DNA of 64,000 nt, taken from a virus. Lineage: Duplodnaviria; Caudoviricetes. Shown piece after piece: positions 23,652-44,944 of this stretch. The number at the start of each line of letters is the position of its first letter. Position 1 is the first letter of the stretch. The notes under the pieces are model-generated. The model saw only the letters and a list, made by a program, of their open reading frames with translations, made no database searches and was not told the DNA's origin. Location of the stretch: positions 1 through 64,000 of the IMG/VR virus record IMGVR_UViG_3300033066_000592; one strand, given 5' to 3'. Both the position numbers and the translations under genes were made by a program.

Positions 23652-24668
23652 ATGATCACGGATTACAGACGGGTGCCTTTCGGCAATCCAAAATGCTCGC
23701 AGTGCCTGCACTACGCACCAGAGCGCAGCGCCTGTGAAATCGGGCAGCTACCTGACGTGTGCGGCGATGGCAGTCGGCCGGACCTCGGTTTTGCGCCGCT
23801 GCACTCGGACTCGCTCATGGTGGTGGGCATACCGCAGAGGCCGCGCATGCTCGAACCTGCGGCGCCTATCGCAGCAGCGGCAGTGCCCAGCCTGGGCATC
23901 GACCCACCGCAAGTCGTGGACATCGCTGCGGGTCCGTCTGCGTCGCTTGCGATGCTTTCGACGGAACAACAGTCCGTGAGCGCGACAGACTCCGACGAAG
24001 CCGTCAATGCGTCGATCGACGAAGTCTTCGAGCAGATCGGTCCAACGGATTTGAACGTCGTCGTTGGTGTCGTCACGCATGTCGGTTTCGACGGCGTGGC
24101 GCGGCCTGGCAACGGAAGCAATCTGCTGCGGTCAATCGCAAATGACGAGTCTCTGATCGTCAACGTTGCGGCGCAGCTCTTGCCGCGAGCGCAGCATATG
24201 CACAAGTCGATGTGCCGTGAATGCTCTGTGGTTCGCATGAACCAGGGCTTTCATGATGGTCGGCTCGACGTGGCGCAGTTTGGGAAGCTCGTGAAAGCCC
24301 AGCTGAGCTATCGCCTGATGAAGGGCTACAACCTGTCGATGCTCGACAGCGTGCTGATGCGGCGATTGCCGGGCTACGAGAACCTGATCAAGGGCGCTGG
24401 CTCCCATGCCAAGCGTACGGCGAGCGGCAGCGTGTCGGCGGCGTATCGAAAAAAGAACGCGACTCTGTCTGAGGGTCGCTTTCCGATCGGTGACAAAGAC
24501 ACTGCCGACAAGGCGCTGAAGCTGCGCGGTCATGCCAAGACCGCGCAGGAACGCAAGAAGATCGTACAGCGCGCGGCTCGCTACGTGCCTGACAAGGCCA
24601 AGGCCGCAGCAAAAGCCGATGGCTGGCTCCTGAACGCAGTGGGTCCGCGTCCGCCAGCTGGAGAGTGA
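23652..24668 (+). CDS. pre-portal head-associated protein
   Basis: Immediately upstream of portal; several L/M-x-K-A/G/S sites; basic C-terminal GRFPI.D domain. Confidence 0.6.
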   Translation: MITDYRRVPFGNPKCSQCLHYAPERSACEIGQLPDVCGDGSRPDLGFAPLHSDSLMVVGIPQRPRMLEPAAPIAAAAVPSLGIDPPQVVDIAAGPSASLAMLSTEQQSVSATDSDEAVNASIDEVFEQIGPTDLNVVVGVVTHVGFDGVARPGNGSNLLRSIANDESLIVNVAAQLLPRAQHMHKSMCRECSVVRMNQGFHDGRLDVAQFGKLVKAQLSYRLMKGYNLSMLDSVLMRRLPGYENLIKGAGSHAKRTASGSVSAAYRKKNATLSEGRFPIGDKDTADKALKLRGHAKTAQERKKIVQRAARYVPDKAKAAAKADGWLLNAVGPRPPAGE

Positions 24669-24672
24669 TCGC

Positions 24673-26529
24673 ATGAATTCGGCGCAGCAGCAGAGCTGGC
24701 AAGAGCGCAGCAACCTAGATCCAGGTACAGCACAGCTTGTTGACGAACTGGCGATGGCCCTCGTCAACAAGCTGCATCCAGCGCAGCTGCGCAACCCTGA
24801 GTCGCCGCCTAGTGAGTCGGTGCTGGTCGATCCACAAGGGGAACCTCTGTCGAAGTCGTTCGACGAGCCAAAAAGCTACTTCATCGATCCGAATGACATG
24901 CTGGGCGGGACGGGTATGAACTACGTCTACCCGCCCACGCAAGTCACGTACGAGACACTGCGCCTGCTGGCGGAGCGTGTGCCTGTTTGCTCGTGTGTGA
25001 TTCTGACGCGTGTGAATCAGGTCGCGTCGTTCTGCCGAGCGCCGCGCAACAAGTATGACATCGGCTTCAAGGTGCGGCCGATCGGCAAGTTCGATGATCG
25101 CGAGCTGACACCGGCAGAGAAATCCAAGTCGGAGGACATTGAGACGTTCCTGCGTTGGACTGGCAACGAGTACAACGAAGGTCGCGATGACTTCCAGACG
25201 TTCGTGAAAAAGCTCGTCAGAGACCGCTTGTACTATGACCAGGCGTGCTTTGAGAAAGTCGCATCACGTGACGGCGGCCTTGCCAGTTTTCATGCGATTC
25301 CGTCAGAGTCGATTCGCATCGCGATTCCGAAAAACGCGCAGGCGACACCTCCGACGGAGCACGATGTACGCCACGACGTCAAGTACGTGCAGATCATCAA
25401 CAGTCAGCCAATTCGCGACTACACGCATCGTGAGCTGGCTTTCCTGGTGGCTAACCCGCGCACGAATCTGCACGTCAACGGTTACGGATTCCCTGAGACA
25501 GAGATGATGCTGACCACGGCGATGGCGTTGCTGTGGGCAGAGGAGTGGAACCGCAACATCTTCAAGCAGGGCTCCACGCTCAAAGGCATCCTCAACGTCA
25601 AAGGCAGCTTCGCCAAGAACAAGTTCCTCGACCTGAAGCGAGAGTTTCAGACGAAGTTCACAGGCGTTCATAACGCGCACAAAAACGGCATCGTCAACGT
25701 CGACGAGCTTCAGTGGATTGCACTCCAGCTGAGCAATACGGAGATGGGCTTTCAGAGCTGGATCGAGTACCTGATCAAGCTCACTTGCGCGTTCTACCTC
25801 ATCGACCCCGCCGAGGTGAATTTCGACCTGCGCGGTAGCTCCCAGCAGCAGCCGATCTTCATGTCTGGCAACGAAGCCCAGCAGAAGATCAGCCGTGATC
25901 GCGGCTTGTCGCCGTTGCTTCAGTACGTCGAAGACGCCATCAACAAGCACATCGTATGGCGTATCGACCCACGCTATATGTTTGGGTTCGTCGGTCTCAA
26001 CGCCAAGACGCAAGAGCAGGCGATCGAGCTGGCCAGCAAAGAGGTCAGTTCCAAGCTCACGCTCAATGAAGTACGCGCGCTGGACGATCTGCCACCTGTG
26101 AAGGGCGGCGACATCGTACTCAACGCGATCTACACAGGCCGCTTGGCTGCATTGGACCAGCAGCAGGCTGGCGGTGGCATGCCAGGAATGCCACCGGGCG
26201 CGGCACCAGGCATGCCTGGTCAACCTCAACCGCCACAGCCGGGTCAGCAGCAGCCTGGGAATCCTTACGACCAGCTACAGCCAGGCCCGCCGGCTGCCGA
26301 AGATAAGCAGGCCGGTGCAAACCTGAAAGCTGCGAGTCAAGGTAAAGATGAGTCGTCATCGAGTGGCGACTCATCTGTGCCTAAGAAGGTCCGGCGCGTG
26401 TTGATGCGCAACGATTGGGAAAACAGCTCTCTGTTCATGTCGCAGGACAAGCGCAGCGCAGCAGGCACAGACTTGGTGAAGTCTCTGTTTGGCCAGGATG
26501 CGACTGGCGATACGTACGACGAAGTCTAG
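24673..26529 (+). CDS. portal protein
   Basis: LVRDRLYYDQACFE, NPRTN..VNGYGFPE, F.QGS..KGIL, QWIAL..SN.EMGF, IDPAEVNF, TLNEVRA.DDLPP..GGD. Confidence 0.92.
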   Translation: MNSAQQQSWQERSNLDPGTAQLVDELAMALVNKLHPAQLRNPESPPSESVLVDPQGEPLSKSFDEPKSYFIDPNDMLGGTGMNYVYPPTQVTYETLRLLAERVPVCSCVILTRVNQVASFCRAPRNKYDIGFKVRPIGKFDDRELTPAEKSKSEDIETFLRWTGNEYNEGRDDFQTFVKKLVRDRLYYDQACFEKVASRDGGLASFHAIPSESIRIAIPKNAQATPPTEHDVRHDVKYVQIINSQPIRDYTHRELAFLVANPRTNLHVNGYGFPETEMMLTTAMALLWAEEWNRNIFKQGSTLKGILNVKGSFAKNKFLDLKREFQTKFTGVHNAHKNGIVNVDELQWIALQLSNTEMGFQSWIEYLIKLTCAFYLIDPAEVNFDLRGSSQQQPIFMSGNEAQQKISRDRGLSPLLQYVEDAINKHIVWRIDPRYMFGFVGLNAKTQEQAIELASKEVSSKLTLNEVRALDDLPPVKGGDIVLNAIYTGRLAALDQQQAGGGMPGMPPGAAPGMPGQPQPPQPGQQQPGNPYDQLQPGPPAAEDKQAGANLKAASQGKDESSSSGDSSVPKKVRRVLMRNDWENSSLFMSQDKRSAAGTDLVKSLFGQDATGDTYDEV

Positions 26530-26540
26530 GAGACACGACG

Positions 26541-29500
26541 ATGGTGATGGTAGCGATTAAGCCACCGAGGCGCGTACGCAGATGGCTAGAGCGACTTGAT
26601 GCGCCTGGCGCAGTGGATGCCGAGAGCTACCACGTCACGTTGTTGCACATCAAAGGCGCTGACCTGTCGAAAGCTGGCTTTGCCGCTCTGTGCGAAGCCG
26701 TCGCCACGACTTGTCGGACGCACAAGCACTTCGCAGCCAAGATCGGCGGCTTCGGTTATTTCCAGAACAGTCAGCCGAAGCCCTGTGTGTGGGCTTCTGT
26801 CGATTCTGTCGCTCTCACAGACGTGCGAAACAGCGTCCTTGCGCATCTCAAGGGCAGCGATGTCAAGGTCTCAGACGAGCACGGATTCACGCCGCACATG
26901 ACGCTCGGTTACACAGAGCATGCGCGCAAGTGGAAGCCTGATCATGTGAAGCGCATGCCCGAGTGGACTGCGAAATCTCTGTACGTCGTGAAAGACGACG
27001 TCTGGACCCGCATGCCTCTGACAGAACCCGTGGACGATCGTATGCGTCTTGTGCCGACGTTTGAGTCAGGCTACCGCGACCTTGAAAAGCTATGGACCTG
27101 GCACAAGTCGCTCGTCGTCGTGAATGAATCCCTAGAGAAAGGCCGCAAGAAGGGCGGACAAAACAAGACGCGCCGATACTTGCTGCGCATCGAGATGCCC
27201 GGTGGTTCACCGGGCAAGCCGAACTACCGCTACGTCTATCCAGATAAAGACGACGTCGTCAGCTTCGATCCAAAGACGGGCTTCAAACTCAAGCCAGGTC
27301 GCAGCATTGCCAAGATCGTCAACGAGAAGCTGTTCGGCGACTACGGCGTAGACTCGCGCACGGGCGATCCCTACGTGAAAGAGGGCCTGTTTTACGCATA
27401 CGAGCCACGTGTCAGCACGTCGTACATGAAGCGCGCGTACGGTGAGCCGATTGCCACGGAGACGCTGAACAAGGTTCGGTTCTTCAAGTACAAGAAGGTT
27501 CACGGCTACACGGACGTCGACCTGGGCCCTGGCGTGGCCGCGTCAGGCTACCGGCTGCCACAGAAGCTGACGCAGCTTCAGATGACCGCTGACGAAGCGG
27601 CGGCGGCTCCGGGAAATCTCGCCGCAGAAGGCGCCGTCATCCTCAAACCAGAGGAGTTTGAAGAGAAGCGACCGTCGCCGTCTCACGACGTGGCACCTGT
27701 CGGCGAGAAGTCGATCGTCGTCGTACCAGAACAGACTCCTCTGTCGAAGTTGAACCTGGCTGAGCCGCTTCCTGACGACGTGGACCCGCTTCAGTACGCG
27801 GTGTCAGCAATCGAAGGCACGCGGCCTGGCCCTGGCAAAGCCGTTGTACGCCCGTTCAAGCAGTGGATGATCGACAAGTTCGGCAGCGAGTCAGGCTTGG
27901 TACAAGAGCTTGGCAATCGGCCGGCTACGACGTTGGTGACGCTCGGGCGTTTCAAGCCGACGCAGAAGAAAGTCCTCGCACGGCTCGAAGAAGAGTGGCG
28001 CGGCGTGATTCGGGGCATCGCCAAGCGTGCTGTGTCGGCGTATCGCGTGAGCAACGCATATCTTGCGGCCAAGGCATCAGATCAGGCCGCTGGCGTGCCG
28101 TACGAGAGTCAGAGTTCAGCAGCGCGCGGCTATATGCGTGAAGTCTTCAAAGAGGCCACGCAGCACGGCAGTGAGCAGCTGCTGCGCCTCGCTCGCCAGT
28201 ATGAGCCCACGGTTCATCACGATGATCGTTTCGACAAGTGGCTGTACGGCGCACTAGAGACGCAGATCGCGCGACACACCAAGCAAGAAGTCGAGCAGAG
28301 CAGCGGTGGCGGTGGAACGATCGAGCCGATCGTCAGCGGCGACATCGAAGAGGCCGCACGACGTACAGCGCAGCAGGTTGACCTGCAGCCTGACGAAGCC
28401 TATGAGCTGAAAGAGGCTGGTCATGACCAGCTGTCAGGCGACGAACTGACGACGTTGTCGACTGTGACAGGCCCTGCGAAAGCGACACTGCTGCGCACGC
28501 TGCACTCGCCTGAGATGCCGCAAGCGTACAGACGAGTGCTGGCTGCGCGCCTGTGGCTCGATTCGCCTGAGTCAAGCGCCGCTGAGGAGCAGGCCATCGC
28601 CAAGCGGTCTGACAAAGGTGTGAAAGGGCCGCAGAGTTTCGAGCGCAACTACACAGGCAAGAACGGTATCGCGTCGCGCTACAAGACGTGGATAGACCCA
28701 AAGACAGGCAAGCTTGTAGACGTGTCGAAGCTGAATCAGAGCCGACAAGCCGCCCTGTTGTCGAGCTGGTACGAAGCGGCTAAAGCGCATGTATTTCGGC
28801 AGCTGAGCGTACCGATGGCCGAGGCTCGCGCCACGATGCCAGACGTGCATCCGAGCGGCCTCTATCAGAATCCGAAGCGTGTGCCGTTCACAGAGCAGCA
28901 GATCGCCGACAAGCTGCATTCAGTCGGCCATGGCACAGCTGAAGATGCCGCAGACTTGCTGGTGGACGCCGCGCTTGGTGGCGGTATGCGCGTGCTGACG
29001 CGCGAAGGCGCGATGGTCAAGCGTTGGCTGGAGCTAGAGACGAAGCTGGCGCGTGGCAATCGTCGACTGTTCTCAGAGCGCACGCAGCATCCGATTGCAC
29101 AGGAGTCGCTGTCTGGGCCCGTGCCCGCACGTCCCGCGAAAATCGTCGTCATGCCTGAGAAGCCTGTGCTGGATAAGCACGGCGAGTGGCAGTCGCTACC
29201 TGTACATCCGACGCAGCGCTCAGCGCATCCGGCGATCGACTTCTTCTCGTCGACACCGAACCAGCAGCTTGCGCAACGGCTGGGCATCAATCTGCGACAC
29301 ATCAGTGGTCCAGAGACGGCCAGTGGTGTCTACGCGCATCAGAACGTCAGCATGGGCACCGCCGCGGAGCACACGCTTGCTGCTGCCAAGCTGGCACACG
29401 CGAAGCTGCTCAAGATGCAAGCACTCAAGCCTGCGCGTCTGCACGAAAAGCTAAAGCGCGCTCAGGCCGACGCAGATGCTCTAGACAAGCTAGGGTTGAG

Positions 29501-30296
29501 CCGCACGTCAGCAGGCATGACGTGGAACGAAGCCGGTCAGATCGGCAAGTTCTACAATGCTGTGCGTGCGCTGCACGCAGCTACGAACACGATCAAGCAA
29601 AAGCAGGCGAAGGTCCGTCTCGCCAAGAAGGCGTATCGCAAAGAGGCTGGCAAGGTCAGCATCGCGGCCAAGAATCCGTTCGACCGAAAGAAGGACAAGC
29701 TCGCGCATTCGGTCATGCGACATATCCTCGCTGTGAAACCGACGAGTACGCAGGAACTTGACCAGGCTGTGATGAACTGGATCGACGAGACGCACGACGT
29801 CGAGAGCAAGTCTGCACGGCGGACGTTTTTCAATGCCGTGAAAGAGCATCTACGCAACGAGAAAGCCGTCAGCAGTGGTGGCGACTTGGCGAAGCATGAA
29901 GCCGAGCTGAAGAGTCACGCGCCGACTGCACAGGAAATAGCAGCGCACAAGGCCGCAGCTGATCACGCAGCGAAAGCTGGAGCTGCTCTTAGCGCCGTGA
30001 AAGTCGCAGGCAAACCGTTCGGTAAGGAAGTCGTGATGCGCTACATCAGCAGCAAGAATCCGGCTGAGGTTCATGACGAGGTGCGTGCTTCGCTTCAGAA
30101 TCTTGCATCAAGCGTACATACCGACAAAGAGCTTGCCGAGTTCGAGCTGAACCGTCGCAAGACGGCCGGCAACACGCTCGTCAAGTCGATGGCTGAGGCT
30201 TCGTTCGAGAGCTTCGGTGCAGCGATCGATGCGTTTGATTTCGCGCTTACGATGACCGATTCTGCACGTATGGCTGCCGAAACGGTCGTGGTGTGA
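26541..30296 (+). CDS. polyvalent protein: N-terminal 2H phosphoesterase, central sigma70-like region, C-terminal shared helical module
   Basis: AGGAG RBS before ATG 26541; YHVTL and PHMTL HxT motifs. Confidence 0.75.
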   Translation: MVMVAIKPPRRVRRWLERLDAPGAVDAESYHVTLLHIKGADLSKAGFAALCEAVATTCRTHKHFAAKIGGFGYFQNSQPKPCVWASVDSVALTDVRNSVLAHLKGSDVKVSDEHGFTPHMTLGYTEHARKWKPDHVKRMPEWTAKSLYVVKDDVWTRMPLTEPVDDRMRLVPTFESGYRDLEKLWTWHKSLVVVNESLEKGRKKGGQNKTRRYLLRIEMPGGSPGKPNYRYVYPDKDDVVSFDPKTGFKLKPGRSIAKIVNEKLFGDYGVDSRTGDPYVKEGLFYAYEPRVSTSYMKRAYGEPIATETLNKVRFFKYKKVHGYTDVDLGPGVAASGYRLPQKLTQLQMTADEAAAAPGNLAAEGAVILKPEEFEEKRPSPSHDVAPVGEKSIVVVPEQTPLSKLNLAEPLPDDVDPLQYAVSAIEGTRPGPGKAVVRPFKQWMIDKFGSESGLVQELGNRPATTLVTLGRFKPTQKKVLARLEEEWRGVIRGIAKRAVSAYRVSNAYLAAKASDQAAGVPYESQSSAARGYMREVFKEATQHGSEQLLRLARQYEPTVHHDDRFDKWLYGALETQIARHTKQEVEQSSGGGGTIEPIVSGDIEEAARRTAQQVDLQPDEAYELKEAGHDQLSGDELTTLSTVTGPAKATLLRTLHSPEMPQAYRRVLAARLWLDSPESSAAEEQAIAKRSDKGVKGPQSFERNYTGKNGIASRYKTWIDPKTGKLVDVSKLNQSRQAALLSSWYEAAKAHVFRQLSVPMAEARATMPDVHPSGLYQNPKRVPFTEQQIADKLHSVGHGTAEDAADLLVDAALGGGMRVLTREGAMVKRWLELETKLARGNRRLFSERTQHPIAQESLSGPVPARPAKIVVMPEKPVLDKHGEWQSLPVHPTQRSAHPAIDFFSSTPNQQLAQRLGINLRHISGPETASGVYAHQNVSMGTAAEHTLAAAKLAHAKLLKMQALKPARLHEKLKRAQADADALDKLGLSRTSAGMTWNEAGQIGKFYNAVRALHAATNTIKQKQAKVRLAKKAYRKEAGKVSIAAKNPFDRKKDKLAHSVMRHILAVKPTSTQELDQAVMNWIDETHDVESKSARRTFFNAVKEHLRNEKAVSSGGDLAKHEAELKSHAPTAQEIAAHKAAADHAAKAGAALSAVKVAGKPFGKEVVMRYISSKNPAEVHDEVRASLQNLASSVHTDKELAEFELNRRKTAGNTLVKSMAEASFESFGAAIDAFDFALTMTDSARMAAETVVV

Positions 30297-32484: not shown

Positions 32485-33811
32485 CGACTACACGAAATAT
32501 TTTCTGAGCCGCGTAGACGGCAGTGAAGACGCCTACAACGGCTACCTACAAGCGCCTGGTGACGACTTGGTGTTTGTGGCCGAGCGGCACGGCCGAGAAG
32601 ACGTCGTGACGAAATCGACGGTGCTGATGAAGGCCGAGAAGTATAAGGTGTTGGGAGTAGCATTTGGCTATGCGAAGCACATTTCCTATCAGCGTCTAGA
32701 TCCCCGCACTGGAAAGATGGTGCAGGTGAAAGGCGGTCGTGATACGCCGATAGGAAAGACGTCGCTGACACCGCACCACTTCGACATTACGGTGCAGAAG
32801 AAGCATGGTCTCAGTGACGATGAGACGGCGATGGCCGTACTTCGCTACGTCGCGCAGAAGAAAGTCCGCACAGAAGGCGAGCTGCACGAGGCTGTGCAGG
32901 AGTTCGTGGAGAAAAATTACGACTCCGAAAGCTCAGAAGCTCGGGGCAAATGGGTGAGCACGATTCTGAAAGCCCTGTTTCACCACAAGGCTGTACAGGT
33001 CACGCATCCAGGTGACGACATTGCGTACGGCAATATGCGCGTGCGTGATATGGCCATGGTGAGCCAGTGGGTACAGGGCTCCAACAACACCGTCGGTTCT
33101 GTCAGGCTCCGTGTCGGTGTTGCGAAACTGTTTAAGCAGGATATCGAGCGCGTCACGGAACGCGCTCGAAAGAATTCATCTGACAAGAAACGTTTTGAGC
33201 GCATGTTGGCTGACGCCAAGGCCGACAAAGACCTCGTCGCTTCTGTGGAGCGCGTAGCGGCGCTGTCACAGTCTGCTTACAAGGGTCAAAAGACGGTCGT
33301 GCTGCATCGCGCTATCAGCAAGGAACAAACAGCTGAGATTCGGAAACAGCTAAAGCTGAAGCCCGGTGTGACTGCACGTGGGAAGGTCATTACGATACCC
33401 GTCGATAACGTGACGTCGTTGTCAGAGAATGCTGCTGCGGCACATTCGGCGTTCGCCGGTTTTGACGGCATGACTGTACGGGTCGAGGTACCCGTGTCTG
33501 CCATCGTGATGTCGTATCGGGCAATGCCGTCCACGATGTCGCTAAGCGGCGACACTGAGTGGGAGGTAGTTGTCGCTACGCCAGGTAAGCTTCATGCTAC
33601 GATCGTAGCCGACAGATATCTTGGTGAGAATTCGTTACCGGAAGCTCCTATTAAATACCAAAAATCTTCTTTACGGGCTTTGGCTGAAAAAGAACGTGCA
33701 CGTTTTGAATCTAGGTACACAAAATTAAATCCCAAGCAGCACAGTATCTACAGCACCTATTGGAAAAAAACGCCTGCGGAATTCCTGCTCGAAGAAGATG
33801 TGTTTTCATGA
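32477..33811 (+). CDS. putative ADP-ribosyltransferase (R-S-E class) with shared N-terminal module
   Basis: VLHRA...VTSLSEN...VEVPVSAIV...EWEVVV. Confidence 0.6.
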   Translation: MRDDYTKYFLSRVDGSEDAYNGYLQAPGDDLVFVAERHGREDVVTKSTVLMKAEKYKVLGVAFGYAKHISYQRLDPRTGKMVQVKGGRDTPIGKTSLTPHHFDITVQKKHGLSDDETAMAVLRYVAQKKVRTEGELHEAVQEFVEKNYDSESSEARGKWVSTILKALFHHKAVQVTHPGDDIAYGNMRVRDMAMVSQWVQGSNNTVGSVRLRVGVAKLFKQDIERVTERARKNSSDKKRFERMLADAKADKDLVASVERVAALSQSAYKGQKTVVLHRAISKEQTAEIRKQLKLKPGVTARGKVITIPVDNVTSLSENAAAAHSAFAGFDGMTVRVEVPVSAIVMSYRAMPSTMSLSGDTEWEVVVATPGKLHATIVADRYLGENSLPEAPIKYQKSSLRALAEKERARFESRYTKLNPKQHSIYSTYWKKTPAEFLLEEDVFS

Positions 33812-34329
33812 AAACAAAGCCCATAGCGCTCACAGTAGACATCGACGCAAACGGTGGTAACGAATGGCTGCACGAGATTCGTCGCAGGCGCGCGGCGCAA
33901 CAGCGCATGCAGAAGGCGCTACCCCAACCGCAAGCCGAGAAGCCGGCCAAGCAGCTTGAGCCTGCGAACAAGCACCAGGGCACCAAGGCTGCGAAAGTCG
34001 CGGCCAAAGGCAGCGGTCGGCCTCGCTACACCTACCCGACCGAGAAGAAGTCGGCACAGGCTGTGGCAGCCAAGCAGGAAGCTGTGATGGTCGCACCTGA
34101 TGGCGTCGATCCACAAGCATTTGCCACCAAGCTGGGCCTGTCCCTGTCGACGCTCAAAGGCACCGTACAGGAGTTTGTGAGCGAGCCGAAGATGGGTGGC
34201 CGTGAGGGCTTCGCCAAGTTCATGCGCAGCACCGTAGGTAAAGCGTTCATGACGCGCAACGGCGTGGGTGACGACTACTTCGGCAAGCTGTACGATGTGT
34301 TCACGAAACCCCCACAGCAGGAGAACTGA
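33808..34329 (+). CDS. basic head-region hypothetical protein
   Basis: ATGA coupling; MQKA site followed by GRPRYTYP. Confidence 0.65.
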   Translation: MKTKPIALTVDIDANGGNEWLHEIRRRRAAQQRMQKALPQPQAEKPAKQLEPANKHQGTKAAKVAAKGSGRPRYTYPTEKKSAQAVAAKQEAVMVAPDGVDPQAFATKLGLSLSTLKGTVQEFVSEPKMGGREGFAKFMRSTVGKAFMTRNGVGDDYFGKLYDVFTKPPQQEN

Positions 34330-34330
34330 G

Positions 34331-34843
34331 ATGCCGATGCAGACACCGACCATTGCAGAACGCATGAGTGCCGCCCTTCACGACGATGACGATGCCATCG
34401 AAAAGGGCGGCGCCGACAAGCTGAAGGTGAACAAGGTGCCGTTTCCGCACAAGAAGCGCACGGGCCCCACAACGGTGCGGCCTGGCGGCAATGTGCCGAA
34501 GCACGGCAACACGCCGGCCCAGCTTAAGGGTAAGATCAAGAAAGGCGACGAGGCCGAAGGCGTCGATGAGACCGACGGCAGCGTGCTGACGCCGCCCGAA
34601 GGCGTTGTCGAGAAGGGCAAGGGCGCGTCCTGCAAGAGCTGCGGCAAGTATGGCGCGCTGTGCAAGTGTGAGGGCAGCATGCAAAAAGGCGAGGACACCG
34701 AAGACAAGCCGGCGCGTGTCGGAGCTTCGGATTTCGTCAAGAGCATGCACGGCATGACCGACGATGACATCGCCCGCGCCGCGCAGTCCGGTATCCTCGG
34801 TCTTGGCGGCACGCCGGCCTCGCTGGGCTTCCCCTCCGCGTAG
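34331..34843 (+). CDS. head-region protein with multiple hydrophobic-x-K-G/S sites
   Basis: IEKG, IKKG, VEKG, MQKG, FVKS; CKSC..CKC. Confidence 0.65.
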   Translation: MPMQTPTIAERMSAALHDDDDAIEKGGADKLKVNKVPFPHKKRTGPTTVRPGGNVPKHGNTPAQLKGKIKKGDEAEGVDETDGSVLTPPEGVVEKGKGASCKSCGKYGALCKCEGSMQKGEDTEDKPARVGASDFVKSMHGMTDDDIARAAQSGILGLGGTPASLGFPSA

Positions 34844-34899: not shown

Positions 34900-37800
34900 A
34901 TGCTGACAGGCAAAACGGTGTCAGGCGGCAAGCTGCGCGTGCGCGTGCAGCCGCTGCCCTACGCGCATCTCCAGCAAGTGGCTGACGGTTTGACGCACGT
35001 GTTTACGACACGTATGCGAGAGCTGGAAGCCAAACTGAACGCGCGTCTCGCTCACACGGTAGAGCGTCTACAGCCAGCCGTGCTCATCGTGTCTGACGAA
35101 CATCTGAGCAAAGCGGCTTCACCTAAGCAGAATGCATCTGGTCAAGCACGCGCGAAAGCCGGCGAGGGTCAGACGCGCACGTATCAGCGACCGCCAGGCG
35201 GTGTGAAGACGCCAGGCCAGCGCGGCGGCAAGTTCTACTACACGGCGACAGGCAAGCTTCGTTACGGCGAGAAGCCGCAGCCGCAAGAACGTGAAGCCAC
35301 GCACGAAGAGGTGCGCCAGCATTTTCAACACTTCCGGCCAACGCCATTCATGTCGAATTCTCGGGAGCACAAAGACCTGCTCCAGGCGATTCGTGATCTG
35401 AAGACCGGTGGCTTCGATGAGACAGATGACACGCTGCTCGGCTGGTGGGAGAAACACCAGAAGCAGTTCAACAAGCTATGGGGCCTGTCTGACGAGGATG
35501 TGGCCGGCGATCTGTCTGCGATCCAGCTACAAGACAACGACGGTCGAGAGCTGTCATATGAGCAGGCGGTTCATGAATTCCTGATGGATCAAGACTGGGG
35601 TGACGCCTCTGAAGCTGACGTAGAAGAGGCGCTGCGCGATGTCATGACGCGCTATCAGAATGCGCTACGTGACCCGGCCGTCATGAAGAAGGCCGAAGCC
35701 ATCGCAGCGCAAGTGGACCAGCAGGTGTATGGCTGGTTCACGAACATGGAAGCGACAGCCGATCACTATGACGGCCTGGCTGCGTCGCTGTCCGGTGATC
35801 CTGACGTCGCTGTTGCGAACATGACAGCGGCGCTTGGCGCTATGGAGCTGGTTTTCAAACCAGGCAAAGGCCAGAAAGCTGGCGATCTGACTGGTGCGAT
35901 TGCGCCGAACAGCGGCTGGCTCGACGAAGGCGGATACCTATCGACGACAGGCGCCGATCGCGTAGCGAGTCTCAACGTCGGACAGCTTCTCGCTATCTAC
36001 GCTGGCGCCAGGCTCAACGAGGCTTTCGATCCAGACACAGCGACCTACGACACGCTTCACGGTGGCAAAGGCCCGCAGTCAAAGCTGGCCGAAACTGTGC
36101 GCAAGCTCATCGCGCAGAAGCTGAAGCTGGACCCTGCGGGCGCGGTCATGACGACGGTGCTAGATGGCGTTCACGCAACCATCGAGCGTCTGGCTACGAC
36201 GTTCTCGAATGCCAACACAGGCCGTGACACGTCAGGTCTCGCCCGCAAGTTGCTCGACATGCCGAGCGACAAGCTCACCAAAGGTGGCGAGGGCGTTCAG
36301 AAGCTGATCGAGAAGGCGCAGAACTTCGAGCAGCTGAAGGCCGACGCGCTCAAGGCCCGTGAGGACGAATCCTGGTCTGTGCCCGACACGATGCTCGAAG
36401 GCAACGTCGGCGGGAAGAAGATCAATCCGATCACAGGCAAACCGTTCGACCTGTTCAAGCACCAAAAACAAGCCATCAACTGGGCCAAGACTGTCAAGCG
36501 TGGGCTTCTTGCAGACGATGCCGGTATGGGCAAAACGGCCGAAGTGATTGGCATTTGCGAGTCGCTGAAGCAAGACGGCAAGATCAAGCGCGGCATCTTG
36601 TTCCTACCACCGTCGCTTCTTGCACAGTGGCCAAAAGAGATCATGAGCTTCGCGCCAGAGATGGCAAAAGGCGGGCGCATCCTGAACCTGTCTGGCCTGT
36701 CCCTGGAAGCTCGCAAGGCCGCGCTTCAGAGCGACATGGCCAAGAACGCCGAGTACATCCTCATGAGCACGGGCTCACTTGCCTATGGCAAGTCCGAAGA
36801 CGGCGAGGAGGATGGCGGTATGGATGAGGGCTTGGTGCAAGCTCTCGCGGATCTCGACGGCGCTGTGTTCATCGACGAAGTACATCAGGGCGGCTTCAAG
36901 ACAGGTAGTCAGGGCGTCGCTGGTACGAAGGATTACAGACCGGGTAGTGTTAAGCATGAGATCACGAAACGCATCATCGGTGAGCGTGATTACGCGTTTG
37001 GCATGACAGCTACACCATGTCCAAACAACCCGATGGACCTGTATCACTTGATAAACCTCTTTCACCCAGGGTGTGTTGGGGATCAGGCTGAGTGGGAAGA
37101 GAAGTTGTCGGGCGTGAAGTGGGACGGCCATTCGTGGCGCATACCGCATCCTGAGAATGTGCAAGAGATTAACCGTCGTATTAAGCCGTTCGCGCTACAC
37201 CGTTTGATCACGGACAAAGTTGTTGAAGAAGACATGGGCAAGCAACTCCCGCAGCTCACGTCTAACGCGATAGACTTAGAGCCAGCGACGGCAAAGTGTC
37301 CCGTAACAGGTTGGAGTCAGCTTGATTACCTGCGACCTGGCGGTGTTTGCGATGCTTTGGCGCAGAAACGCTTAGAGATCATCAACGCGAAGCGTGAAAA
37401 AGCCGGAAAGCCTGTGTTGGAGGGTGTAGACGCAGAGACTACCGTGCGCATGATCCACATGGGCCTAGAGCGCCAGGCCGCTATCAGTCCAGAGCTGATA
37501 GATCCGCGCTACCGCGGTCCTGCCGCCAAGCTCGATCGCGTTGTTGCCGATGTCATCGCCCACTTCTCAGGCGGCGCTGGTCAGGAAGGCAAGCCGATCG
37601 TTCTGTTCGACAGCTTCCCTCGCAAGTCTTTTCCCGTCGTCAAGCGCAAGCTTGCGGAAGCCGGCATCGACGTGAGCGGCATCGGCGAGATCATGGGTGG
37701 CAAGTCAGCGCAAGAACGCGCTTTCATGCAGGATATGCTCAACGGTTATGAGCGTGTGAATCCTGCGACGAAAGAGAAGGAGTTCGTACCAGGTAAGCTC

Positions 37801-39673: not shown

Positions 39674-40374
39674 GCGCCGGCCTTTTGGACCTGACAGTGC
39701 TGACGCGCGAGGTCGACGTAGAGTTCACGGCGTTCCTCTACGAACTTTTTGGGTCGGCCGTTGTCGACGCGGAAAGCGCCATGATCGCTCGGACTACCTT
39801 GCACAAGAAGTCCGAGCGCGTCGGTATGCAGCTGTTGGCTGAGGCGAATAGCAGTCGACCTACGCAGCGGTTAGCTCGTGAGCGGCTGGTTCTGCGGGCG
39901 CAGGCACTTCGTGACGACGTGCAGCGTGGCTTGACGCAGGCGTGGCTGTCTGCCGATGGCCAGCCGGTCGAGGCTCGCGTGGAATTTATGCGTCGCGAAA
40001 TCGTGCCTCGTCTTGTGATGGACGCTGTGCGTGCATGGGTTCGCGTCGGCACGGCAGAGGTCTGGACGCTCTACCAGGAAGCGCGAGCACAGGAAATCGT
40101 CGATAGTACGGGCTTGCCTGATCCGTATGTGCACAAGATAGGTGCCGAAGACTGCTGTGAGTTCTGCGTGCATCTGTACGGCTCCGAGGGCAAATACAAG
40201 ACGTACCGGCTGAGCGAACTGCGTGGGAACGGCACGAATGCGGGCCGCGAGCCTCGGCAGGAGGTTCTAGAGGGCAAGGTTGTGCCTGAACAGCATCGTG
40301 ACTGGTTGCCTGTGCTGGGCTCTACGCACGGCTGGTGCAACTGTGCGTTGCAGGCGGCGGGAGCACCTACGTGA
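39670..40374 (+). CDS. MuF-like head morphogenesis protein
   Basis: CCEFC...THGWCNC C-terminal motif; position in the head module. Confidence 0.65.
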   Translation: MSAGLLDLTVLTREVDVEFTAFLYELFGSAVVDAESAMIARTTLHKKSERVGMQLLAEANSSRPTQRLARERLVLRAQALRDDVQRGLTQAWLSADGQPVEARVEFMRREIVPRLVMDAVRAWVRVGTAEVWTLYQEARAQEIVDSTGLPDPYVHKIGAEDCCEFCVHLYGSEGKYKTYRLSELRGNGTNAGREPRQEVLEGKVVPEQHRDWLPVLGSTHGWCNCALQAAGAPT

Positions 40375-41225
40375 GCGAGTCACCGTTTGCACGTGTGGTT
40401 CTGCACCAGAAACCTACAAAGCTGGAAACGCCAGATTCTGGCCGCACAGGCTTGGTGCGCATTGCGACGTACGAGGGCGGCACCAAAGCTGTGGTCCGTG
40501 TGCAGAGTCACGAGCTTGAAGGTAAGCGCACCAAGGGCTTCACCAAGCAAGACGGGCTGCCTGTGAAATCACAGCCCGTCAAAGACGCGGCCTACTACGC
40601 ACTGGCGAAGCTGTTGCGTTGCGACGACATCGTGCCCGAAACGTTGCTGAAGATTACGCGACGCGGCAACGACGTTTCATACCAACGATTCGAGCGAGCA
40701 CTGACACTGCGTGACCTAGAGCCGGCTTTACACAAGCTGGAAAAGGGCAGCGACGAGTGGCGTGCTGCGGCGGCACAAGCCATGAAAGTCGTCTCTGACG
40801 AAGACTGGCTCAAGGCAGCGCTGCTCGGCCTTGTTGCGGCTGACCGAGACAGGCATCTCAAGAACTTTGGCGTGCGTGTCTTGGTTGAAGGAAACCGCAT
40901 CGTCTATAGGCTCGTGCTGTGGGACAACGGCGTTTGTCTCGGACAAGCATTCAAGAAGTATCGCAGCGTCGTGCATGAGATCCTGCATGCTCGCAAACTG
41001 GTGTTCGGTGACGTCTTGGCGCGCGTAGACGACATACGTGCTGACGACGTGACAGACTTACTGGTTACGAACCGCATCCACCCGACGGAAGCACAGCAAG
41101 CCGGCAAGCGGCTTGACTTCGTGCGCCGATACCCCCACCGGATGCCTTGGAACATACTCACAGGCATGCCCGGCTATCCTGCCTATCGAAATTTCTTCAG
41201 AGGCGGGGTAGATTGGCGGGGATGA
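40371..41225 (+). CDS. PI3K/PI4K- or HipA-like kinase
   Basis: AAYYALAKLL..DIVPET; DRDRHLKN catalytic loop; LWDNG. Confidence 0.72.
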   Translation: MSESPFARVVLHQKPTKLETPDSGRTGLVRIATYEGGTKAVVRVQSHELEGKRTKGFTKQDGLPVKSQPVKDAAYYALAKLLRCDDIVPETLLKITRRGNDVSYQRFERALTLRDLEPALHKLEKGSDEWRAAAAQAMKVVSDEDWLKAALLGLVAADRDRHLKNFGVRVLVEGNRIVYRLVLWDNGVCLGQAFKKYRSVVHEILHARKLVFGDVLARVDDIRADDVTDLLVTNRIHPTEAQQAGKRLDFVRRYPHRMPWNILTGMPGYPAYRNFFRGGVDWRG

Positions 41226-42010
41226 GTACAGCACACGAGGTACAGCGTCTTCTTGAGGAGGACGAATTTTCGCTGTGGGTTCCGCCTACCGCGACGTCAG
41301 GCTTTACGCTCCTGTCGAAAGCTGGCGAAGTTCCTGCTGACGATGCCCCGCGCATCATTCACGGCTTCTGCACGACAGAGCACGAAGACCGGCAACAGGA
41401 AATCGTGATCGCCAAGGGCCTGGACTTCGCACCGTTCATCAAGCATGGCTGGTTCAACGACAATCACTCGCCACGAACGGCCGACGTGTTGGGCTGGCCT
41501 ATCGAAGCTCGTCTCTACGAAGACAAAGGCTGGTACACGAAAGGCCAGCTTCTGAAGGGCAAAAAAGCCGCTGACGACGTATGGGAACTGGCTGTCGCCC
41601 TTTTCAAGAGTGGTAGCCCTCGACGCCTGGGCTTTTCGATCGAAGGCAAAGCGACGTTGCGCAATGCAGCAAATCGCATTGTCAAAGGCGTTGTGCGTCA
41701 TGTCGCCATCACGCGCGATCCTGTGAACCCGAACTGTCAGCTCGACGTGCTGTGCAAGGCTTTCGCGCCGTCGGAAGAAATCGAGCGCGCCTACACGATC
41801 AGCAAGGCCGCGATGATCGGCCATCAACATCCCGTTATGCACGGTCACGCAGCTCTTGTGCCTGCAAACTTGGAAGCTGCACGTATCATCCGACGAAAAC
41901 AAAAACGTTTGTCGAAGGCAGACGTAGAACATCTCGTACGTCAAGAGATGCAAATGTCCGACGCCTCCGTGATGCGCGTCGTGGACTGGATCATGTCGCA
42001 ACAACAGTGA
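41222..42010 (+). CDS. prohead maturation protease
   Basis: IHGFCTTEHEDRQQEIV, FNDNH, GFSIEG, HVAIT.DPVNP. Confidence 0.85.
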   Translation: MSTAHEVQRLLEEDEFSLWVPPTATSGFTLLSKAGEVPADDAPRIIHGFCTTEHEDRQQEIVIAKGLDFAPFIKHGWFNDNHSPRTADVLGWPIEARLYEDKGWYTKGQLLKGKKAADDVWELAVALFKSGSPRRLGFSIEGKATLRNAANRIVKGVVRHVAITRDPVNPNCQLDVLCKAFAPSEEIERAYTISKAAMIGHQHPVMHGHAALVPANLEAARIIRRKQKRLSKADVEHLVRQEMQMSDASVMRVVDWIMSQQQ

Positions 42011-42017
42011 GGACCAG

Positions 42018-42389
42018 ATGAACAAGGCACCGACGCAGACCACTCGCCGTATCAACCTGACCGATCCCCAGATCAAGCTGTTTCAGCTGGCGAGCGGTCA
42101 GAGTTTTACGATCCCGGAATCGATCGACATCCCTCCGATGCCGAACAACCTGATGGCTGCGGCCACCAGTCGGCGCGCCACTGGCGGTGAGATTTTTGGC
42201 TTCACCGATGACCAGGGCGTCATCGAGCCGCATCGGGATTTCGGCCTCGTGCTGAAGCCTGGCGATCGGCTGGTGCACGGTGCCATCGGCGCGGTGGCCG
42301 CGAACACTTCGATCCTGTACGTCAACGACGTCGAAGTGCTGCGAATCACGTGCAGCGACATCAGCGTGGTGCTCGGCTTCTACAGCTAG
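42018..42389 (+). CDS. hypothetical protein
   Basis: GAGGA RBS; lies between protease and scaffold. Confidence 0.65.
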   Translation: MNKAPTQTTRRINLTDPQIKLFQLASGQSFTIPESIDIPPMPNNLMAAATSRRATGGEIFGFTDDQGVIEPHRDFGLVLKPGDRLVHGAIGAVAANTSILYVNDVEVLRITCSDISVVLGFYS

Positions 42390-42438
42390 GCGCTGTCGTT
42401 TCACATCACCGAACGCTGAAAAGCACTGGAGCTTCAAG

Positions 42439-43404
42439 ATGGGTAAGAAAGCAGTTTCAGACGAGACGGTTACGGCAGCGCTGGCACAGCTGCGATCCAA
42501 GATCGCCAAGAGCCAAGGCGGCGATGCCCTGGCGAGCGCCGATACGGAGGGTGGGCTGTCCTCCGAAGGTGAAGACATGAGCAAGCTGGGCAAAGGCAAG
42601 GCCGGCAAGGTCGCCAAAGGCAAGAAGCCACCGATGAAGAAGATGTATTCGGAGTCGGATAAAGATCCCGACGAGTCGTCTGACGATGACGAATCGAGTG
42701 ACGACGAGTCTTCGCCCGCAGCGCCGCCTGTCAAGAAGGGCATGCCGGAGTCTGACGAGTCGTCCGACGAAGAGTCATCCGACGACGAGGAGTCTTCGCC
42801 TGCGCCGACCGTCAACAAGAGCAAGAAGCGCGTTCGCAAGTCGCTCGTCGATCGCGTCGAGGACGACACGGATTTGCGCAAGGGCTTCGCCGCCAATGCG
42901 TTCCTGAAGTCGATGACGGAACGCCTGTCGGACACCGTCGAAGACTATCGCGACGAGCTGCGCAAGTCGTACGGCGAGCTGTCCGAGCAGGTCGATGGTC
43001 TGGGCGAGAACTTCGCGGGCATGCACGAGAACATCAGCGCTCTGGCGGCCGACAACGCGCGACTGAAGAAGGGCATGGATGTGCTTGCGGAGGGCCTGAC
43101 TGAGGCGCTGTCGCTGCTCGAACGCATTGCCAAGGCGCCTACGAGCAGCGGTCCACGCAGCGTTCTGCGCAAAGGGGATGTCGTGGAGCCGTCGCGGCTC
43201 AATGACGGCGGTGATGATTCGCTGAACCCCGCGCAGCACAGCAATCTCGTCAAGTCGTACCTGCTAGAGAAGATCGAGAAGGGCGAAGTGGCCAGCACGG
43301 TCATGGCTGCCTGGGAGCAGATGGGCAACGTCGAGTATTTGCCCTCGAATGTCATGAACAAGATGCTGGCCGATTTCCAGGCCGGCTGGAAGCCCAAGGC
43401 GTAA
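42439..43404 (+). CDS. capsid scaffold protein
   Basis: Acidic D/E/S tracts and coiled coil; directly upstream of the major capsid gene; GGAG RBS before ATG 42439. Confidence 0.75.
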   Translation: MGKKAVSDETVTAALAQLRSKIAKSQGGDALASADTEGGLSSEGEDMSKLGKGKAGKVAKGKKPPMKKMYSESDKDPDESSDDDESSDDESSPAAPPVKKGMPESDESSDEESSDDEESSPAPTVNKSKKRVRKSLVDRVEDDTDLRKGFAANAFLKSMTERLSDTVEDYRDELRKSYGELSEQVDGLGENFAGMHENISALAADNARLKKGMDVLAEGLTEALSLLERIAKAPTSSGPRSVLRKGDVVEPSRLNDGGDDSLNPAQHSNLVKSYLLEKIEKGEVASTVMAAWEQMGNVEYLPSNVMNKMLADFQAGWKPKA

Positions 43405-43413
43405 GCCGCCGCT

Positions 43414-43436
43414 GAGGCAGCTATCTCGGCTGCCTC
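43414..43436 (+). other. 8-bp stem-loop between scaffold and major capsid genes
   Basis: GAGGCAGC-7 nt-GCTGCCTC. Confidence 0.45.
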
Positions 43437-43468
43437 TCAACGCAAACCAGGAACAAGGAACAGAGAGT

Positions 43469-44944
43469 ATGTACGATAACGGAAACCTGTCAGAACTTGC
43501 CGGCGGCGGCGCGTCCTTTGGCGTCGGTCTGCCAGAGAACTACTTCGGCGCCGGTTTCGGTGGTGCGACCGAGAGCGAGATCCGCAAGGCGCTCACGATC
43601 GGCACGCAGCATCCGGCCGTCAGTGGCGGCATGACGCTCACGAGTCAGTCCCTGGAAGGGACCATGCGCGTCACGACGCTCAACATGAGCCACATCAAGT
43701 TCTACAAGAAGCTGTCGCGGCTCGGCGCCGACAACACGGTGCTGGAGTACAACCTGCAAGACAGCTACGGCCAGACCCGCGCCGGAGCCTTCACCAAGGA
43801 AGGCGAGCTGCCGCAGCAGCAGGATGCCGCGTATCGCCGCGCGCTCGCGCAAGTCAAGTACCTGGGCACGCAGCGTGGCGTCAGCCATCCGATGACGGTC
43901 GTGAAGTCGGCCTTCGGCAACGTCATCGCGCTGGAAACGACCAACGGCGTCATCTATCTGATGTACCAGCTGGAAAAGGCCCTGTTCAAAGGCGACAGCA
44001 CGATCGTGCCCGAGTCCTTCGACGGCATCTTCCAGCAGATCGTGCAGCATCCTGTTGCGCGTCGCCGGAACATCATCGACCTGCGCAACGGCGTCGTCAC
44101 GCAAGACATCATCGAGCAGGCGTCGAACATCATCGTCTCTGCACTGGGCGAGCCGACGGATCTCGTGTTCTCGCCGAAAGCGCATTCGGACTACAGCCGC
44201 CAGTTCTACCCGATCCAGCGTGCGGGCCTGCCGATCGCGACTTCGCAGGGTACCGTCGGCTTCGTGGTGCAAGAGACGCTGACCACGGGCGGTATGATCA
44301 AGCTGGAGAACAACCTGTTCCTGCGGCCTGGCGAAATCGGTTCACTGAGCGAAGGCGACACCGACAAGGCGCCGCCGAGCGTAGCCAGTTCGCCGAAGGC
44401 CCCGCTGCCTCCGACGATCGCGCTGGCCGCCGCCGTGGGCATCGGCAGCAAGTTCAGTGCTGCCGATGTCGGCACCTATCGCATCCGTGTGTCGGCCAAG
44501 AACCGCTTCGGCGAAAGCGCCGCGTCGTCGTCGTCGTCGGTCCTTGTGGCTGCTGCCGGTGACGGCATCCAGATCACCATCACGGATGGCGGTGGTCTCG
44601 GAGATCAGACGACGACGGGCTTCATCATCTATCGCAGCGCCGATCCGAATGCCATCGCCGGTACCGAAGAGGTCATGGTCGAAGTGCCGCGTACGCCTGG
44701 CGCGACCACGATCACGATCGACGCCAACGATGACATCCCTGGCACGAGCAAGGCGCTGATGTACAACGCCTCGCTGCAGGTGATGTCGTGGCGTCAGCTG
44801 CTGCCGATGATGAAGGTCGCGCTGGCCACCACGGCGCCTTCGGTGCAGTGGATGCAGCTGCTGTACGGTACGCCCATCGTGTACCAGCCCACCAAGGTCG
44901 TGCTGCTACGCAACATCCGTGATCGTCAAGCGCTGCTGTCGTAG
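43469..44944 (+). CDS. major capsid protein (SPO1/Twort-type)
   Basis: QSLEGT, EYN...F..EGELP...D..Y.R....KYL, LEKALFKGDS...FDG; FN3-like YRI.V..KNRFGES insertion. Confidence 0.92.
   Translation: MYDNGNLSELAGGGASFGVGLPENYFGAGFGGATESEIRKALTIGTQHPAVSGGMTLTSQSLEGTMRVTTLNMSHIKFYKKLSRLGADNTVLEYNLQDSYGQTRAGAFTKEGELPQQQDAAYRRALAQVKYLGTQRGVSHPMTVVKSAFGNVIALETTNGVIYLMYQLEKALFKGDSTIVPESFDGIFQQIVQHPVARRRNIIDLRNGVVTQDIIEQASNIIVSALGEPTDLVFSPKAHSDYSRQFYPIQRAGLPIATSQGTVGFVVQETLTTGGMIKLENNLFLRPGEIGSLSEGDTDKAPPSVASSPKAPLPPTIALAAAVGIGSKFSAADVGTYRIRVSAKNRFGESAASSSSSVLVAAAGDGIQITITDGGGLGDQTTTGFIIYRSADPNAIAGTEEVMVEVPRTPGATTITIDANDDIPGTSKALMYNASLQVMSWRQLLPMMKVALATTAPSVQWMQLLYGTPIVYQPTKVVLLRNIRDRQALLS

Follow-up and report, generated by a model that had tools for sequence, protein, structure and literature searches.

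Enzymes of the assemblin clan read a short P3-x-P1↓P1′ site (the arrow marks the scissile bond), which is L/I-x-E↓ for gp21 of phage T4 and V/L/I-x-A↓S at the maturational and release sites of herpesvirus assemblin. The gp4 protease of HK97, a phage without a separate scaffold, cuts the capsid protein after Lys (K103↓S104) and digests the delta domain as well as itself. In the SPO1/A511 group, a single Lys-specific cut of the capsid protein is already known, having been on record since the sequence entry of Listeria phage A511 (X91069), in which the mat_peptide starts at codon 24 (...EDALK23↓SFTTGYG). Prohead proteases from phiKZ and SPN3US cut at A/S/G-x-E↓ sites with Ser favoured at P1′, and the SPN3US enzyme (A-x-E, Ser preferred at P1′) removes propeptides from the capsid, portal and ejection proteins in addition to its own C-terminal propeptide (PMC10052503). 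Here we analyze the corresponding system in a 64,000-nucleotide stretch of a Caudoviricetes virus (IMG/VR record IMGVR_UViG_3300033066_000592, positions 1 to 64,000; this whole stretch is called the window), in which a Lys-centered motif, [L/M/I/V/F]-x-K↓[S/A/G] (P3-P2-P1↓P1′, hereafter Phi-x-K↓[SAG]), recurs among the head proteins and, with a probability that we put at about 0.85, reflects the specificity of the prohead protease that the phage itself encodes (41222-42010).

The phage is contractile-tailed, and its genome is a single contig of 74,264 bp, of which the window covers the initial 64 kb, with about 59% GC and with nearly all genes on the plus strand. The head genes follow the order portal, protease, scaffold and capsid, starting respectively at 24673, 41222, 42439 and 43469, and this order is retained in related loci; the portal and the protease are separated by 14.7 kb of coding sequence. 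The proteins that carry the argument are the following:

24673-26529: portal (phrog_12, E 3e-48)
34331..34843, plus strand: p170, a small, Lys-rich protein of 170 amino acids
41222..42010, plus strand: prohead protease, 262 amino acids, assemblin fold (phrog_1028, E 6e-45)
42439..43404, plus strand: scaffold, 321 amino acids (weak PHROG scaffold match, phrog_15087)
43469..44944, plus strand: major capsid protein, 491 amino acids, SPO1/PF17236-type (phrog_752, E 2e-84)

The head modules of SPO1-type phages and A511 are alike in having homologous protease and capsid proteins, the protease-scaffold-capsid order, and the cleavage Lys in the same alignment column. The capsid protein is 32-34% identical to SPO1-group capsids and matched PDB 9vel (SPO1 gp6.1) at E 1e-64, and the protease is 36-41% identical to the SPO1-type protease (SPO1 gp3.2), with tblastn identities of 36-43% to SPO1-group prohead proteases; a Pfam search returned no match for the protease, the scaffold or the capsid. 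Unlike the window phage, in which 14.7 kb of large enzyme genes occupy this position, SPO1 has no genes between portal and protease; P1′ of SPO1-type sites is almost only S, whereas it is G, S or A in the window phage; and A511 has Ala at P3 of its own capsid site. The likeness to T4, phiKZ and SPN3US lies in the reuse, predicted for the window phage, of one short P3-x-P1 motif for capsid propeptide removal, degradation of scaffold or core, and protease self-cleavage, the same motif there also trimming the propeptides of the portal and of internal or ejected proteins, with propeptides that bear several motifs. In those phages, however, P1 is Glu, whereas it is Lys in the window phage, in which packaging of the enzymes is putative.

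Motif excess in the scaffold, protease and p170

An earlier note, made from the letters of this DNA, had proposed the motif as a protease cleavage code of the head module, and had stated that A511 Cps is matured by cleavage after a Lys, which is correct (X91069, Lys23↓Ser24). All motif instances listed in it were reproduced, including the 14 scaffold copies in the order given, five in the 34331 protein (p170), the repeated ones in the protease, which number eight, IRKA at capsid K40, and LSKS and LVKS at portal K61 and K603, together with those in the large enzymes that are described further below. In all, 89 genes were called genome-wide, and each motif count was compared with 2,000 shuffles of the same protein, which corrects for Lys and for all other residues. 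By this measure the scaffold contains 14 motifs against 2.0 expected and the protease 8 against 0.96 (both p<=0.0005), p170 contains 5 against 1.04 (p=0.005), and the three pooled contain 27 against 4.0 (Poisson 4e-14), so that the excess in these three proteins is far above chance. The capsid (4 against 1.4, p about 0.05) and the protein p338 (4 against 1.3, p about 0.04) have smaller excesses. The portal contains 2 motifs against 1.9 expected (not significant), and four large enzymes encoded between portal and protease contain 16 against 19.4, or, with the portal, 18 against about 21. For the tail genes downstream of the capsid, 20 motifs compare with 21.9 expected; for the upstream genes, 25 compare with 21.6. 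The excess that the earlier note had required to survive correction for Lys content does so in the scaffold, protease and p170, and is absent from the portal and the large enzymes of this genome.

The enrichment is a property of the family. A scan of viral contigs with the capsid as a single sequence gave no matches, whereas a profile built from 30 capsid homologues retrieved 80 related loci, of which 60 non-identical ones were used for counting; the order protease, scaffold, capsid was found in nearly all of them. Counting in these 60 loci gave 666 motifs for the scaffold open reading frames (ORFs), those between protease and capsid, where 92.8 are expected; the corresponding observed and expected figures are 351 and 78 for the proteases, and 143 and 74 for the capsids. 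Nearly every related scaffold has 10-15 motifs (p<=0.001), the few exceptions being mis-picked short ORFs, and the scaffolds themselves are mostly too diverged for detection by BLASTP. The same scaffold and protease enrichment is seen in cultured relatives, namely SPO1 (scaffold 11 against 1.3 expected, all x-K-S; protease 8 against 1.6), Shanette (13 against 1.4; 9 against 1.3) and Twort (7 against 1.3; 6 against 1.2), the capsid sites of SPO1 and Twort being LNK23↓A and VMK↓SYQTGYG.

The specificity of the site was examined by swapping the central residue of the pattern for each amino acid in turn (P1 scan), which revealed that Lys alone is enriched, by 7.2x, and that the other 19 residues reach at most 1.02x (Arg 0.78, Glu 0.84, Asp 0.77). 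Around the scaffold Lys residues, 45% of which fall within the motif, there is a preference at P3 for L, M, I and V (1.9-3.1x), at P1′ for S (3.2x), A (1.7x) and G (1.6x), and a mild hydrophobic preference at P2′ for F, I, M and L (~2x). When the motif was reversed or shifted as a control of register, it reached 1.15-1.7x at most.

The sites in the scaffold and p170 are these:

42439..43404, plus strand: scaffold Phi-x-K↓[SAG] sites K24, 52, 60, 100, 127, 134, 148, 157, 176, 211, 232, 245, 272, 281
34331..34843, plus strand: p170 motif sites K25, 71, 95, 119, 137

Cleavage at the scaffold sites would produce fragments of 7-40 amino acids. In six aligned homologues of this scaffold, between 2 and 8 of the 14 sites fall in the same column, and yet each homologue has 10-14 sites; this turnover of positions at a kept number indicates selection for the density of sites, or cuttability, rather than for fixed positions. 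The scaffold is also distinguished by two acidic Ser/Asp/Glu-rich stretches within residues ~68-123 (42640-42810), SSDDDESSDDESSP... and SDESSDEESSDDEESSP..., both of which terminate in a Pro-rich linker, after which comes a motif site (PPVKK↓G and PTVNK↓S); similar acidic blocks, variable in length, are present in the scaffolds of relatives. For p170, the orthologue in the related locus L003 has 7 motif sites, and proteins of 142-159 amino acids in the same interval of related loci have 5-6 sites against 0.5-0.8 expected, from which p170 is predicted to be a heavily cleaved core or scaffold-like protein. It has in addition a Cys cluster (CKSCGKYGALCKC), retained in the L003 orthologue (CKGCGKSMIKCMCKG) and flanked by motif sites, and could be a small metal-binding internal head protein.

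The capsid site and the prohead protease

The capsids of the window phage, SPO1, A511 and 60 loci were aligned (63 sequences). The feature in question is:

43580..43591, plus strand: capsid IRK40↓A, predicted maturation cleavage

The K40 column is Lys in all 63 sequences, including K23 of A511; P3 is L, I, M or F in 62 of them, and P1′ is A or S in all. With the exception of one over-extended ORF call, 22-57 residues of variable sequence precede the site. Since K40 is aligned with the mapped K23↓S24 site of A511 and is invariant, the window capsid is very probably cut at IRK40↓A41, with loss of a 40-residue propeptide and with A41 as the mature N-terminus.

The protease was modeled by AlphaFold (AF2) from 28 homologues, which placed the catalytic domain at residues 40-178 with a predicted local distance difference test (pLDDT) score above 90. 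By Foldseek, the best matches of the model were herpesvirus proteases (E 2e-5 to 1e-3), with that of Kaposi's sarcoma-associated herpesvirus (2pbk) at E 2e-5; the pseudorabies virus, Epstein-Barr virus, varicella-zoster virus, herpes simplex virus and human cytomegalovirus proteases matched as well, and so did T4 gp21 (PDB 5jbl, E 1.6e-3), which has the same assemblin fold. The template modeling (TM) scores are low (0.3-0.46) because the flexible termini were included. A HMMER search of PDB chain sequences with the protease detected no similarity to proteases of the T4 gp21 or phiKZ type, and the aldolase matches that it returned were discarded as spurious. The putative catalytic residues H82 and S139 are invariant in the 28 homologues and spaced as in T4 gp21. 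Taken from sequence and model, the 41222-42010 product is an assemblin-fold serine protease homologous to the SPO1-type enzymes, with predicted activity. Herpesvirus assemblin, the best structural match, is also alike in its hydrophobic P3, free P2 and small P1′; it differs in having Ala at P1, a protease that is fused to the scaffold, and a sequence identity of 11-16%. The architecture of the window motif is indeed that of assemblin-clan sites, with Lys at P1.

Eight motifs are distributed over the protease as follows, two of them being singled out by their conservation:

41222..42010, plus strand: protease motif sites K33, 65, 112, 129, 155, 179, 195, 232
41750..41761, plus strand: LCK179↓A, the most conserved site, predicted self-cleavage at the C-terminal edge of the catalytic domain
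41312..41323, plus strand: LSK33↓A, in a disordered linker ahead of the catalytic domain

The K179 position is Lys in 97% of 61 proteases and lies within a motif in 58 of them, and pLDDT falls at residues 180-182. The K33 column has the motif in 37 of the 61 and the adjoining column in 9 more, the residues 16-35 having a pLDDT below 50. The best-conserved protease sites lie in low-confidence linkers at the domain edges, and the conservation of K179 and K33 fits a self-release of the catalytic domain, whereas the turnover of the internal sites fits programmed self-destruction.

The C-terminal tail of the protease, beyond the catalytic domain, resembles the arm of the capsid that begins at the maturation site:

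41792..41887, plus strand: protease C-tail residues 191-222, YTISKAAMIGHQHPVMHGHAALVPANLEAARI, homologous to the capsid N-arm
43574-43669: capsid N-arm residues 36-67, SEIRKALTIGTQHPAVSGGMTLTSQSLEGTMR, starting at the cleavage site

By BLASTP the likeness was only a hint (E 0.11). A hidden Markov model (HMM) of the capsid N-arm, run against all ORFs of the loci, matched capsids and 15 proteases only, with E down to 3.6e-12; the SPO1 protease was among the matches (E 1.7e-9), and at least 14 other loci share the tail likeness. Profile-profile alignment by hhalign gave a probability of 97.2% (E 3.6e-11) and placed K195 on K40. The tail may take up the contact that the capsid N-arm makes, either with the scaffold or with a neighboring subunit. 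In this way the protease would be drawn into the procapsid, to be followed by a cut of the tail at the matching Lys. The tail may accordingly be a recruitment device or a substrate mimic. HK97 gp4 is also targeted to the procapsid via its C-terminal tail, which, to our knowledge, has not been recognized as a copy of the capsid N-arm.

The portal, the interval enzymes and the surrounding genome

The 14.7-kb interval between portal and protease encodes, besides p170 and three further smaller ORFs, the following proteins, for which motif counts of the four large ones (within-protein shuffles, none significant) are given:

26541 protein, 1251 amino acids, with an N-terminal 2H phosphoesterase domain (Pfam, residues 9-129): 3 motifs against 5.9 expected
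TopIB, 728 amino acids, with a TopIB core (PF01028, E 1e-27): 4 against 4.0
447-amino-acid protein (32468), without a family match: 3 against 2.3
p173 (33808 protein), 173 amino acids
SNF2 helicase, 1460 amino acids: 6 against 7.1

The sites claimed for these proteins were all recovered, namely LEKG at K200 and LVKS at K1215 of the 26541 protein, which has a further LSKA at K44; IVKA at K110 of TopIB; VTKS and LMKA at K49 and K55 of the 32468 protein; MQKA at K36 of the 33808 protein; and LSKA at K71 of SNF2. Neither Pfam nor PHROGs supports the label 'ART' that had been attached to the 32468 protein. K44 of the 26541 protein was rejected as a propeptide site because it lies within the folded 2H domain. 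The sites were additionally scored with a position matrix derived from 638 scaffold sites of related loci, and the candidates, by position, are:

24847..24858, plus strand: portal LSK61↓S, candidate N-terminal trimming site, high matrix score
26473..26484, plus strand: portal LVK603↓S, candidate for C-terminal trimming, 15 residues short of the terminus
30177..30188, plus strand: 26541 protein LVK1215↓S, candidate for C-terminal trimming, 36 residues short of the terminus, high matrix score
30619..30630, plus strand: TopIB IVK110↓A, candidate site just upstream of a shared helical module (see below)
32606..32635, plus strand: 447-amino-acid protein VTK49↓S and LMK55↓A, both candidates lying shortly ahead of the shared module
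33907..33918, plus strand: p173 MQK36↓A, candidate leader-peptide site
35104..35115, plus strand: SNF2 LSK71↓A, candidate leader-peptide site

Eleven of 12 related portals have a site in the first 45 residues, ahead of a conserved DPxxL segment, and five have one in the last 25 residues, at positions that do not align, the conserved cores being almost devoid of sites. Just ahead of the DPxxL segment there is also a P-K-[SA] sequence in 11 of 13 portals (EPK67↓SYFIDP here; residues 63-69, 24859-24880), which lacks a hydrophobic P3 and may be a further cleavage site or purely structural.

Orthologues for comparison of the enzymes were few; L003 is the single locus orthologous across part of the enzyme block, ending at its p173 homologue, and one near-identical protein, P0123, is the sole comparison for TopIB, in which the motif is retained as IKK↓A. 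In SNF2, the residues ahead of the site cannot be aligned with those of L003 and differ in length by ~40 amino acids; the motif is nonetheless retained (HLSK71↓A vs EIKK111↓A), and strong conservation starts a few residues past it. In p173, a variable leader of 33 amino acids, against 118 in L003, precedes the site (MQK36↓A vs LSK121↓A), which is where the BLASTP match begins. Across related loci, ORFs between portal and protease contain 191 motifs against 84 expected (2.27x), while the observed/expected ratio of ORFs downstream of the capsid is 0.99. A site is present at residues 10-120 in 79% of the interval ORFs vs 27% of the downstream ones, and in the last 40 residues in 36% vs 8%, the p-values of this family-wide terminal bias being indicative only, because longest-ORF calls and related sequences were used. 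In interval proteins of at least 250 amino acids, the frequency of the motif, counted per Lys, falls from 0.144 over the first 120 residues to 0.081-0.086 in the middle and returns to 0.141 over the last 40, whereas downstream proteins have no such terminal bias. From these comparisons, terminal trimming of head-internal proteins is plausible in the clade and, in the window genome, likely for SNF2 and p173.

Within the genome itself, a match at residues 15-80 is found in 9 of 15 head-module proteins vs 11 of 53 non-head ones (21%; Fisher 0.005), a difference that narrows to 5 of 11 (p=0.09) once the scaffold, protease, p170 and capsid are set aside. The motif alone is thus a weak predictor of head contents, and the claim of the earlier note that it foretells which proteins are inside the head is not supported, given the unenriched portal and enzymes and the frequency of N-proximal matches in non-head proteins. 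Its companion claim, that the motif marks where the protease cuts, very probably holds for the scaffold, protease and capsid; for cargo it draws support from position only, i.e., from the leader/body boundaries of SNF2 and p173 and from the termini of interval proteins.

More promising than the motif as a common packaging tag is a helical module of ~75-95 amino acids, which is common to the C-terminal part of the 26541 protein (29628-29930), the N-terminal parts of TopIB (30745-31017) and the 447-amino-acid protein (32765-33052), and the extreme C-terminus of SNF2 (39037-39279), and whose profile retrieved 13 proteins only among 1.84 billion representatives. A short element, G-Y-x-K-H-x-[SG]-Y-x-R-x-[DV]-[PN]-x-[TG]-G-K, precedes the module in TopIB (residues 115-128, ~30640-30680), the 447-amino-acid protein (66-82, ~32660-32710) and the 26541 protein (~715-728, ~28680-28720); it is also found at the extreme N-terminus of two small metagenomic proteins, P0130 and P0132, in the latter after an IEK↓A motif.

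Among the neighboring features, the following genes lie outside the head module:

2464-5435: terminase, small and large subunits
51915-54632, plus strand: tail sheath, 905 amino acids

The terminase genes lie ~19 kb upstream of the portal, an unusual split between packaging and head genes, and the region between them contains replication-type genes, ParB-like genes and a minus-strand block. A 340-amino-acid minus-strand ORF (16150-17172) resembles residues 227-429 of the tail sheath (~210 amino acids, 34% identity, E 3e-24), with weaker similarity to ORFs at 47246-48991 and from 62846 onward; the likeness to the sheath looks like a duplicated surface-domain module. Immediately upstream of the protease, a 284-amino-acid protein (40371-41225) has a sub-threshold Pfam match to HipA_C (kinase-like, E 0.009); its orthologue in L003 shares 38% identity with it, and a DRH..N motif is conserved.

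Alternative explanations and significance

Several points weigh against the protease-specificity reading and are gathered here. Every cleavage in the window phage, at each individual site, is one that we infer, and the same is true of the packaging of the large enzymes in the head. Three of the four motif sites of the capsid and four of the eight in the protease lie within folded domains and may for that reason escape cleavage. By density, no motif enrichment is seen in the portal or in any of the four large enzymes, and the site matrix failed to tell the enzyme sites from chance matches in the rest of the genome. Because related loci share ancestry, the p-values computed across the family exaggerate their independence. 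Finally, the A511 scaffold has 2 strict motifs against 1.5 expected (8 KS dipeptides against 4.4), and its capsid site is A-L-K↓S; given this weak enrichment and the Ala at P3, the P3 rule is not universal in the wider family.

Other explanations of the motif fare considerably worse. It is true that Lys makes up 10% of the scaffold, in which small residues abound as well, and an excess of compositional or chance origin in such Lys-, Ala-, Gly- and Ser-rich sequence might be suspected; nonetheless, such an origin does not withstand the within-protein shuffles, the P1 scan or the register controls, which leaves its likelihood practically negligible, and the P1 and register controls likewise led us to reject an origin in coiled-coil sequence. 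One could also regard the motif as a structural or binding repeat of scaffold-type proteins, serving capsid contact or helix capping instead of cleavage, considering that many scaffold sites are in predicted helical, coiled-coil-like sequence, that P2′ is hydrophobic too, and that cleavage is here deduced from sequence. However, acidic disordered stretches contain the motif as well, and so do the protease and p170; Lys alone, and not Arg, Glu or Asp, is enriched, in strict register, at positions that turn over while their number is kept; and the capsid instance is aligned with a mapped cleavage site, which together make a structural repeat quite improbable. Cleavage after Lys by a different enzyme, either a Lys-specific protease of the host or another phage protein, has precedent in phages that use a host protease for trimming of capsid and scaffold, as staphylococcal phage 80alpha does with the host Prp protease. 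Against it, the enrichment recurs in ~60 loci and three Herelleviridae lineages with differing hosts and GC, and travels with, and inside, the protease gene; a foreign enzyme is therefore very improbable. The alternative that deserves most attention bears on the cargo and portal part only, is assessed apart from the figure given for protease specificity, and holds that the code is real for the scaffold, protease and capsid, and that the enzyme and portal instances are mostly chance and uninformative on packaging. The enzyme and portal densities at or below expectation agree with it, as do the matrix scores of 4 or higher in 4/337 K sites of the four enzymes vs 10/702 of non-head proteins, the matches at residues 15-80 in 11/53 non-head proteins, and the location of 26541 K44 inside the 2H domain. 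On the other hand, SNF2 K71 and p173 K36 fall exactly at the boundary of variable leader and conserved body in the L003 comparison, interval proteins have 2.27x the expected motifs, with N-terminal sites in 79% vs 27% and termini that are richer per Lys, and related portals repeatedly have sites at both ends; on balance, we rate chance for these instances at somewhat below even odds.

If the motif is the specificity of the phage's own protease, head maturation can be pictured as follows. Inside the assembled procapsid, the protease would remove the 40-residue capsid propeptide at K40↓A41 and would divide the 321-amino-acid scaffold, by up to 14 cuts, into peptides of <=40 amino acids that can exit the shell. 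It would also act on itself, at K33 and K179 on the edges of the catalytic domain, at K195 and K232 of the C-terminal tail, and probably at internal sites as well, and p170 would be a further heavily cut substrate. Loss of a terminal peptide by a single cut is probable for SNF2 (K71), p173 (K36) and both ends of the portal, and may perhaps extend to TopIB (K110) and the 447-amino-acid protein (K49/K55). The mechanism advanced in the earlier note is borne out for the scaffold, protease and capsid, where the motif behaves as a recognition site, specific in Lys and in register, that is enriched in 60 loci and has K40 in the column of A511 Lys23↓Ser24, but was over-extended in its application to cargo.

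The window system is, in essence, the familiar logic of motif-directed head maturation, run by a homologue of the SPO1/A511 protease. What is added to the single capsid cut of that group is a site rule, Phi-x-K↓[S/A/G], with 10-15 sites per scaffold plus sites in the protease, conserved in an uncultivated clade as well as in SPO1, Shanette and Twort; in a limited literature search, which included work on Felix O1 and fRuSau02, a scaffold- or protease-wide Lys code in SPO1-type phages was not found. Cuts after Lys yield ends that look tryptic, and trypsin-based virion proteomics would therefore miss these sites, which may explain why the code has gone undescribed for SPO1-type phages. The results also correct the over-reading that motif counts reveal capsid cargo. 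A more far-reaching scheme, which we consider doubtful and offer tentatively, is that the Lys code serves as a modular loading system of a large, mostly uncultivated clade with SPO1-type heads, whereby TopIB, SNF2 and the 2H phosphoesterase would be targeted by variable terminal leaders that are clipped at Phi-x-K↓[SAG], and the protease would be recruited via the tail copy of the capsid N-arm and released by cutting that copy. The mimicry of the capsid N-arm by the protease tail is, in its own right, a possible recruitment mechanism for the protease. Overall, the rule offers a testable prediction of the mature ends of head proteins in the window phage, in several hundred related metagenomic phages and in SPO1, according to which the mature capsid N-terminus would be Ala41 in the window phage and Ala24 in SPO1 gp6.1, and the scaffold would be completely degraded.

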